Shown: piece after piece, positions 9,001-12,000 of the stretch
How the letters are laid out: the number at the start of each line of letters is the position of its first letter
Position numbering within the stretch: position 1 is the stretch's first letter
Virus record (IMG/VR): IMGVR_UViG_2698536458_000006
From: a virus
Lineage: Duplodnaviria; Heunggongvirae; Uroviricota; Caudoviricetes
DNA: 13,408 bases
Reading direction: 5' to 3' (one strand)
Made by a program: the position numbers

Positions 9001-12000
9001 TAATCCCGTTCAGATTATCGCTGCCGGGAGCGTTCGTACGGGCATGAAGATACCCCGCGCTCAGTGTGGACTGATGTTCAGACGCCCATGCAGGCGCACC
9101 GGATACGGCCAGGCAAATGGCTGCGGACAAAATGGCTGCACAAACTTTACGCATAATTACCTCTCGCTTTTCTGCAATAAAAAAGGCGCCATTTCTGGCG
9201 CCCGTATATGGGTTATAAAATTCAGCTGATACTGATGCCTGCGGTGGCTTTCTTCATCACCACAACCAGCAAATCGCTGATACTTGCTGTGGGATACCAG
9301 TTATTCACCAGCCATGCTGACACCGAAAACTCCAGCGTCATGTGGCCGCGACCAGCTGGCATATCAATAACACCACTGTAAATCAGCGTATTATCCAGCG
9401 CGGTACGGTTATAAATTTCAGCACCGTTTTTCCGTACTATCAGGCGGCATGACGAATAAATATCGTTATTCTCCCGCTCATGTTTAGCGCCGCTGAATGC
9501 CACCGCCGGAATAACAATTTGCCTGTCAAAAGGCTGATCGTCATAAATCCTGACGGTAATGGTCCCTGATGGCCACCGCTCCGGTGCCCGGGAGTCCCGC
9601 GGAAAAGCCTTACCCACTGTTTTGACTATATCGCCTTCAATCTGGTTGGCTGACAGTTTCCCCTTAATCTGACAGTTCTCATTAATTGTGACATTGTTGA
9701 GCGTCCCGGCGTTCGCATTCACACTGCCACTGATATCTGCATTTTTAGCGGTCAGTTTTCCGTCCGGTGTCAGGGAAAATGCCGGAGGATTACCGCCGCT
9801 GGTAATGGTGGGAGCCGTCAGGCGTTTCAGGAACACGTCGTTCATGAATATCTGATCGCCCTGACCAACAAACATCGGCTTTGTGTTGCCATTCGCAGGA
9901 TTAATCATCGCAATCCTGTCTGCCGCCAGCAGCACCTGACTCTGCATTCCTGCTGGCGTATTCTCAATACCGGCACCGATACCCGCAATATAAAGGCGTC
10001 CGTCCTTCATCTGTTGCAGCTTCACAGCCCACATGCTGTTCAGATTATTATTTGTATCAACCTGAACCTTCTGTATCTGCTGGATTGCCGCACTCTGGTC
10101 TTTCAGTTTCTTATTGACAGTCTGCGTGATTTCATTGCTGACATCCGTAATGGACGTCCTGATTTCAGCCAGGTCAGGCGCAAGCTGACCGTTATCAATC
10201 TGCGTCCACAGCTCCTGAGCCAGATGTGTTTTCCCTATCTCTCCTTTGAAAAAATCCAGGTAACCTTCCGCATCATCGCTCGCCCGACCGACAGCCTCCA
10301 CGAATGCCGATTTGCCAACGGTGTTCACACTGCGAACGTAAAAATAATAATCATGGCCCGGTTTGATATTGATACTGGCGGCTATCCAGTACAGCGCCGT
10401 GCCAAGATAGCGTGCTGTGGTTTCAACCTGCCTGATATCCGCAATCCGCTTTTCCGAGAACCAGAACTCAAACTGTACCGTCGGGTCATAAACGGCAAGA
10501 TGCGGCGTTGCGGTTATCTGAAAATAGCCCGGCGTCAGCTCAATCCGCGACGGTGNNNNTTCTCAATACCGGCACCAATACCCGCGATATAAAGGCGTCC
10601 GTCCTGCATCTGCTGCAGCTTCACAGCCCACATGCTGTTCAGGTTATTATTTGTATCAACCTGAACCTTCTGTATCTGCTGAATTGCCGCACTCTGGTCT
10701 TCCAGTTTCTTATTGACGGTCTGCGTGATTTCATTGCTGACATCCGTAATGGACGTCCTGATTTCAGCCAGGTCAGGCGCAAGCTGACCGTTATCAATCT
10801 GCGTCCACAGCTCCTGAGCCAGATGGGTTTTCCCTATCTCGCCTTTGAAAAAATCCAGATAACCGGATGCATCATCACTCGGCTGACCAACAGCCTCCAC
10901 GAATGCCGATTTGCCAACGGTGTTCACACTGCGGATATAAAAGTAATAATCATGGCCCGGTTTGATATTGATACTGGCGGCTATCCAGTACAGCGCCGTG
11001 CCAAGATAGCGTGCTGTGGTTTCAACCTGCCTGATATCCGCAATCCGCTTTTCCGAGAACCAGAACTCAAACTGTACCGTCGGATCATAAACCGCAAGAT
11101 GCGGCGTGGCGGTTATCTGAAAATAGCCCGGCGTCAGCTCAATCCGCGACGGTGCTGCCGGTGCGGCAATCCGGAAGGTGGTGGTGGCAGGTTCACCCTG
11201 CTGGCCATAGCTGTTTATCGCCCGCACCGTCAGGGTGTATTCCCCGAGCGGCAGGCCGCTGAAACGGTGCTCCGTGTCTGCGGTGATGGCGGTGGTCACC
11301 AGTCTGGCATCCGTTCCCTTACCACTGGTCAGGCGCAGACTGAAGCGCACACCCTTCACCACCCGCGGCGTGTCCCATTTCGCCTGCGCCAGATACTGGC
11401 CGTCAGGTGCTGCACTGCCGGTGGGATGACGCTGTTCAGGGAACCTGACTGCGGCTCAAAGCGGGCACCGTTATCCACGATGGCTTCTTTTTCCAGTACG
11501 TGCTGCACCGCCGTGATGGCAAAGGTGCCGTCCGTGTTTTCCCGGACGGAGACACAGCGGAACAGGCGACGGCGCAGTGACGGCAGGGAGAGTCCCCACA
11601 CCCCGTATGTCTCCACACCATCAGGCAGGGTACTGACCTGTATCCGGTCCGGCGCGGGGTGTTCGGTGATGTCCACACTCACCGGCTTACCGCTGCCGTT
11701 AATCAGGTTCACCGTGGCGGCACCGGTCTCCGGAAGTGTCACTTCACGGTCCAGCGTCAGAGTGCGGGTGGCAGCATCAATGGACAGGACACGTCCGCCG
11801 GTCAGGGTCCCGGCATAGTCGTTATCACAGATTTCAATGATGTCACCGGGTGTGTGCCGCAGCCCCTGAGACCCGAGCGTGAAATCCACCGTCTGCGTTT
11901 CCAGCAGTTCGGTCTTTATCACCCACAGTCCGGCACGGTGGGCCTGACCGCGGCTGGTACAGCCGAACGCGTCCATCTTCAGCAGGTTGCGTCCGTAGCG

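Follow-up and report, generated by a model that had tools for sequence, protein, structure and literature searches.

An inherited 22-nt deletion between short direct repeats in the J pseudogene of a lambda-like prophage of Shigella sonnei

The window, by which we mean the whole stretch of 13,408 nt that was analysed, is a complete draft contig of Shigella sonnei, on which lies the tail end of a lambda-like prophage, including gene J for tail-tip attachment or host specificity. J is read on the minus strand and is here a pseudogene of the gpJ/TipJ family, not a working member of it (Table 1). The position within the tail module is the usual one: in S. sonnei loci with the same J copy, genes T, H, M, L, K and I lie upstream and lom and the side tail fibre gene downstream, and in the window the start of the tail fibre gene, also on the minus strand, is listed after lom (9154-8555). 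Pfam recovers all gpJ domains (FNIII-A_GpJ, Phage-tail_3, Ig_J, Ig_J_second, Phage_Tail_Tip and Ig_GpJ_C), scattered over separate ORFs, and the Ig_J domain is cut by a 22-nt deletion. A single J frame of about 1,130-1,160 codons is not present; it is broken by a stop at codon 68 and by the 22-nt deletion at nt 1867, and J is thereby split into fragments of 67, 547 and 509-513 aa. The middle fragment, the ORF at 12999-11356 (minus strand), was found by exact-sequence look-up to be CSQ51884.1, ‘host specificity protein [Shigella sonnei]’. The 3′ part of J at 9222..10555 carries no further lesions. After subtraction of 599 nt, i.e. a duplicated segment described below together with its NNNN, J measures 3,452 nt versus 3,474 nt for the intact gene, and the same length is found in complete genomes.

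Table 1. Coordinates of J, its lesions and the neighbouring features in the window
Feature	Position	Strand	Basis
J start, authentic ATG	13272	-	ORF reading
N-terminal J fragment, 67 aa, authentic ATG	13072..13272	-	ORF call
Second J lesion: TGA where the intact gene has TGG (Trp68)	13069..13071	-	gene comparison
Middle J fragment, 547-aa ORF, with FNIII-A_GpJ and Phage-tail_3 domains	11356..12999	-	Pfam
Deletion junction, sole remaining CTGACGG copy	11400..11406	-	alignment with intact J
14 wrong-frame codons after the deletion, upstream frame	11359..11400	-	translation
TGA closing the shifted frame	11356..11358	-	translation
True J continuation in the -1 frame, remainder of Ig_J; identical to S. 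sonnei chromosome copies	11151..11398	-	
Chimeric J stretch, matches second J copy (7621-6638)	10560..11108	-	variable sites
NNNN scaffold join	10556..10559	.	sequence
3′ part of the J pseudogene: Ig_J_second, Phage_Tail_Tip, Ig_GpJ_C (receptor-binding domains)	9222..10555	-	Pfam
lom (Ail/Lom outer-membrane protein), directly 3′ of J as in lambda	8555..9154	-	
ORF of second J 3′ fragment; Phage_Tail_Tip and Ig_GpJ_C; ∼90% identical to E2348/69 J	7294-6170	-	
Truncated lom, 160 aa	6099-5617	-	
Tail fibre ORF, 1,524 aa; phage_tail_N, Phage_fiber_2 repeats, Collar	5524-950	-	
Tail fibre assembly gene	950-369	-	

The scaffold has defects of its own, with four N-runs (3196-3217, 7661-7671, 7752-7855 and 10556-10559) and a direct duplication of ∼595 nt of J, in which 10560-11154 is 96% identical to 9961-10555 with NNNN between the two. 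Compared column by column, window 11260-11151 equals the S. sonnei chromosome copy; window 11108-10560 agrees at every variable site with the second J copy (7621-6638), not with the S. sonnei J pseudogene; and below the NNNN (10555 downward) the sequence matches the chromosome copy again at ∼99%. Judged from these matches, the assembler crossed between J paralogues, after which scaffolding attached the real downstream sequence and thereby created an artificial duplication. This duplicated, chimeric J segment flanked by NNNN was overlooked in the earlier note on this DNA. A draft from a similar project (CXCN01000049.1) appears to contain this cross-over too and has a hybrid ORF of 725 aa. The chimera lies ∼250 nt downstream of the deletion site along J and leaves the finding of the deletion unaffected.

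Beyond lom, the contig continues with the second J fragment and further tail genes, whereas complete genomes have J, lom and tail fibre without a second J immediately after (as in locus L010). The two J-lom-fibre sets may be neighbours in the genome or may have been chained by the scaffolder. The 1,524-aa tail fibre ORF spans the 22-N gap at 3196-3217, the matching E. coli genes encode ∼1,000 aa (3,027 nt in locus L003), and blast returns overlapping pieces, so that a further scaffold duplication may account for the surplus. Inside the tail fibre assembly gene, Rfam reports IS009 (RF02111) at 409-607 on the minus strand, with 218 bits against a gathering threshold of 117. At the deletion site itself, no Rfam features were found. 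Two antisense ORFs lie over the site (10508-11818 and 11235-11429, plus strand), neither of which has a Pfam match, and they were treated as shadow ORFs of the coding strand.

Around the deletion, the minus strand reads ...CCA CCG GCA GTG CAG CAC CTG ACG GCC AGT ATC TGG CGC AGG CGA AAT GGG ACA CGC CGC GGG TGG TGA. The J frame is maintained down to the alanine codon GCC at 11400-11398, beyond which 13 wrong-frame codons lead to the TGA at 11358-11356, and homology to J resumes in the -1 frame at the CAG at 11398-11396 (CAG TAT CTG). All coordinates given for this frameshift in the earlier note are correct when read on the minus strand, and its estimate of a deletion of about 22 nt (3n+1) can now be made exact: in a three-way alignment with the intact J gene of E. 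coli E2348/69 and with J of VT1-Sakai, a comparison of the kind proposed in the same note, the window shows one clean gap of 22 columns. Within ∼100 nt on each side of this gap there is no other difference from E2348/69 J. By gene-wide comparison, the missing 22 nt are CTGACGGTGGAGGTGAGCGCAG, nt 1867-1888 of the 3,474-nt E2348/69 gene. Seven codons (VEVSAAD) and one additional base are lost, inside the first Ig-like domain of J, and the frame shifts at codon 624; in the intact protein of 1,157 aa, the site falls within Pfam Ig_J (residues 609-712). The seven residues that lambda had been said to possess in excess are indeed present in the intact proteins of E2348/69 and lambda, the latter read from residue 618.

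A 501-nt query across the site matched 1,895 complete E. coli genomes, and the best of these matches span 523 subject bases at an identity of 95.6%, as expected from a single 22-nt gap plus roughly one mismatch; the same was seen in phage records. With an 81-nt query, all full-coverage matches listed among complete E. coli genomes consist of two pieces spanning 103 nt, i.e. they carry the 22 nt. An intact homologue that lacks these residues while staying in frame, which had been named in advance as evidence against a lesion, was not found, and the complete E. coli matches listed at full coverage all carry the 22 nt. When the protein of the 547-aa ORF was used as the query, the homologues recovered were only intact or partial J proteins of E. 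coli and Shigella, covering 98% of the query, a comparison that says nothing of the frameshift tail.

Inspection of the parental allele revealed that the lost segment is bounded by short direct repeats, which the earlier note did not mention. In the intact genes the region has the form CAC-CTGACGG-TGGAGGTGAGCGCAG-CTGACGG-CC, with two perfect 7-bp repeats separated by a 15-nt spacer (tggaggtgagcgcag), so that the repeats lie 22 bp apart from start to start. The 22 nt lost are one repeat plus the spacer, and a single CTGACGG is left at 11406-11400: two copies in the parental allele, one in the derived allele. The CTGACGG pair is the sole pair with 7-bp homology at 22-nt spacing within the J gene. 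Of the deletions of 5-60 nt that are possible in J, only 0.06% would have microhomology of at least 7 bp, so that the homology at the 22-nt deletion exceeds chance expectation; a second deletion in this gene, of 17 nt, also has 7 bp.

This second deletion is found in three of the loci (L006, L015 and L018), where J lacks an additional 17 nt (GGTGTGGAGACATACGG) at nt 1654, which corresponds to about 11603-11619 of the window; in the window itself this segment is intact. It likewise lies between perfect 7-bp direct repeats (GGTGTGG), and it results in a 503-aa ORF that occurs on 11 contigs. We considered whether the two deletions together, with 17 + 22 = 39 nt, might restore the frame, and rejected this, since the shifted frame stops at locus position 7785, before the junction at 7837. 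As both of the two deletions bear the rare 7-bp signature, slipped-strand mispairing at short direct repeats probably produced the 22-nt deletion. Slipped-strand mispairing of this kind is well known to cause spontaneous deletions in E. coli, classically in lacI. Those deletions share with the present one that repeats flank the lost segment and that one copy remains, the end product being all that is seen here.

The neighbourhood of J shows possible further decay in individual strains. In CP029794.1 the tape-measure gene is split, but this locus contains 100 Ns, so the split may reflect a gap in the assembly and not a lesion. In CP064376.1, an IS transposase of 385 aa lies within the tail fibre region.

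The 22-nt deletion is not the only lesion of J in the window, where the TGA at 13071-13069 replaces the TGG (Trp68) of the intact gene. The stop and the deletion had been described as two independent lesions, and as mutational events they are indeed separate; their inheritance, however, is not independent, as they co-occur in every sequence examined and travel as one haplotype. The accompanying argument, that two lesions speak for real decay of J rather than for a single error, is borne out, as both recur in each of the 10 NCBI loci read and in the five IMG/VR contigs. J is needed for tail assembly and adsorption of phage lambda, and lambda mutants without J protein form no functional tails. 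The prophage is therefore predicted to be defective at least in J, with no full-length J and no infective tails. A phage with both lesions would be unable to infect, from which we infer that the lesions arose after lysogeny.

To follow the distribution of the two lesions, we relied on several collections. The assembly index lists the 67-aa N-terminal fragment in 633 blocks, ten places from these were read, and the junction and the codon-68 TGA were both present in 10 of these 10 NCBI loci; seven of the ten records are chromosome-sized (CP032523.1, CP061367.1, CP029794.1, CP064376.1, CP022672.1, CP026802.1 and UGZB01000001.1). In IMG/VR, the exact 37-nt junction occurs in five contigs from five different IMG genome projects, and exactly the same five carry the codon-68 TGA together with it, while 75 IMG/VR contigs have the 53-nt parental sequence, intact and with the same flanks. 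Among the loci examined, neither lesion was ever seen alone; since the two always occur together, they constitute one haplotype. From 13408 down to ∼11200, no more than 1 nt per 150 distinguishes the window from the S. sonnei copies. The common form of the 547-aa ORF, with an identical wrong-frame tail, is found on 248 contigs, all of them named S. sonnei and including strain 53G, and the ORF of the window differs from it at two residues, both outside the tail. These private differences, D328A (∼12017) and L478R (∼11567), both on the minus strand, may be either true SNPs of the strain or errors of the draft. Both lesions have reached fixation among the S. sonnei genomes examined.

Outside S. 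sonnei, neither the 501-nt nor the 81-nt query found the junction among 5,426 complete E. coli genomes, and the codon-68 TGA was not found there either; for this, the best identity to a 91-nt query was 98.9%, i.e. one mismatch. The exact junction gave 0 matches in GTDB species representatives and 0 in JGI metagenome contigs; the window is therefore absent from these two collections, and the allele is unseen in those metagenomes. No paper on this particular lesion turned up in the literature searches.

Could the deletion be an artefact of the draft scaffold, such as a gap closed wrongly or a misjoin caused by repeats, with the true frame intact? The contig is a poor scaffold, as its four N-runs and the artificial 595-nt J duplication testify, and the cross-over into the paralogous J copy occurs just ∼250 nt downstream of the deletion. 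However, the identical junction is present in the seven chromosome-sized records, in several independent drafts and in the IMG assemblies, and the ORF with the frameshifted tail stands on 248 contigs. The nearest N-run is 840 nt away, homopolymers of at least 4 nt are absent from the site, and a 7-bp repeat should be too short to mislead a k-mer assembler. The junction is thus restricted neither to one assembly or technology nor to a gap, a contig end or a homopolymer, though in this window's assembly the site is vouched for by identity to other assemblies only. Because the junction recurs in complete genomes, and with neither N-run nor homopolymer at the site, we regard the deletion as a real inherited allele and an artefact as extremely unlikely. 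An even smaller chance is left to a programmed -1 ribosomal frameshift, or another form of recoding, that would yield full-length J from this site. The downstream frame of J opens at 11455 and overlaps the upstream frame by ∼100 nt, and a -1 shift anywhere in 11455-11359 would rejoin the protein. Nevertheless, this overlap contains neither an X XXY YYZ heptamer nor a homopolymer of at least 4 nt, in agreement with the earlier remark that no slippery heptamer was seen. The intact homologues of E2348/69 and lambda are read here in a single frame and have 22 nt more, and so the shift is a recent lesion, not a conserved feature. The two-frame arrangement is not conserved among the E. coli genome and phage-record matches listed, which all carry the 22 nt. 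J moreover stops at codon 68 as well, and the further frame-breaking 17-nt deletion in some strains argues that there is no selection to keep the frame; for all these reasons recoding has next to no chance of being the explanation.

A different question is whether the lesion is real and the split gene is nevertheless kept, the 3′ fragment of 509-513 aa with its receptor-binding domain being expressed alone or serving as a recombination reservoir for lambdoid phages. In the loci examined, the 3′ 1.5 kb has no further stop or frameshift, and the fragment is called as an ORF of 509 or 513 aa on ∼250 contigs. Temperate phages are reported to take up DNA from defective prophages (PMC3945230). Yet the S. 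sonnei genomes are too alike for a lack of further lesions to signal selection, and the tail fibre and H genes nearby have IS insertions or breaks in some strains, which is consistent with neutral decay. Retention of the 3′ J module in S. sonnei, whether through lone expression, for example by occupying or masking a phage receptor, or as a donor of host range to lambdoid phages, is therefore very unlikely in our judgement.

The account that we prefer, and hold to be very probably right as a whole, is that J of S. sonnei is a pseudogene which lost 22 bp between repeats after lysogeny and whose decay is inherited vertically. In this account, the 22 bp missing between the two CTGACGG repeats would have been lost by replication slippage or another microhomology-mediated deletion. 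The loss shifts the frame, and translation stops 14 codons on. The change of TGG to TGA at codon 68 adds to the damage, so that full-length J cannot be produced and infective tails are not expected. The lesions would have been acquired in the bacterial lineage after lysogeny; they are passed on by vertical transmission, and some strains have in addition gained a 17-bp deletion of the same kind. What the sequences establish is the deletion with its repeats, its inheritance, and its absence from the E. coli genomes examined, to which slippage, the timing and the loss of infectivity are added by inference.

Among known systems, intact gpJ of E2348/69 (WP_000514675.1) and lambda J (AAA96553.1) are the closest references, with the same gene order I - J - lom - tail fibre and the same Pfam architecture as J of the window. 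E2348/69 J and window J share 95-96% nucleotide identity, and nothing but the 22-nt gap separates them over 11475-11198. Unlike intact gpJ, the window copy has the stop at codon 68 and lacks nt 1867-1888; what remains is ORFs of 67, 547 and ∼510 aa, and no J is encoded. In the prophage VT1-Sakai (Sp15) of E. coli O157:H7 Sakai, J is likewise split, by a frame-breaking mutation, in two ORFs, annotated ‘truncated protein by a mutation’ (BAB19563.1 / BAB19562.1). That split is at another place, near locus positions 2432-2555 and upstream of the present site, and the 22 nt of VT1-Sakai are intact. As the VT1-Sakai case shows, decay of J is a common occurrence in resident prophages.

The frameshift in J is ordinary inherited decay of a prophage, already public as split ORFs in hundreds of S. 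sonnei records, and its novelty is limited to a tidy mechanism and a possible lineage marker. In using this particular contig, it should be borne in mind that it is chimeric downstream of the deletion site. J should here be annotated as a pseudogene, not as two or three ‘host specificity proteins’. With its two separate short-repeat deletions, the gene offers a textbook-like case of such events in one decaying gene. Moreover, the junction together with the codon-68 TGA, present in 15 of 15 loci with this gene copy and not found in any of the 5,426 complete E. coli genomes, may serve as a marker of the lineage.
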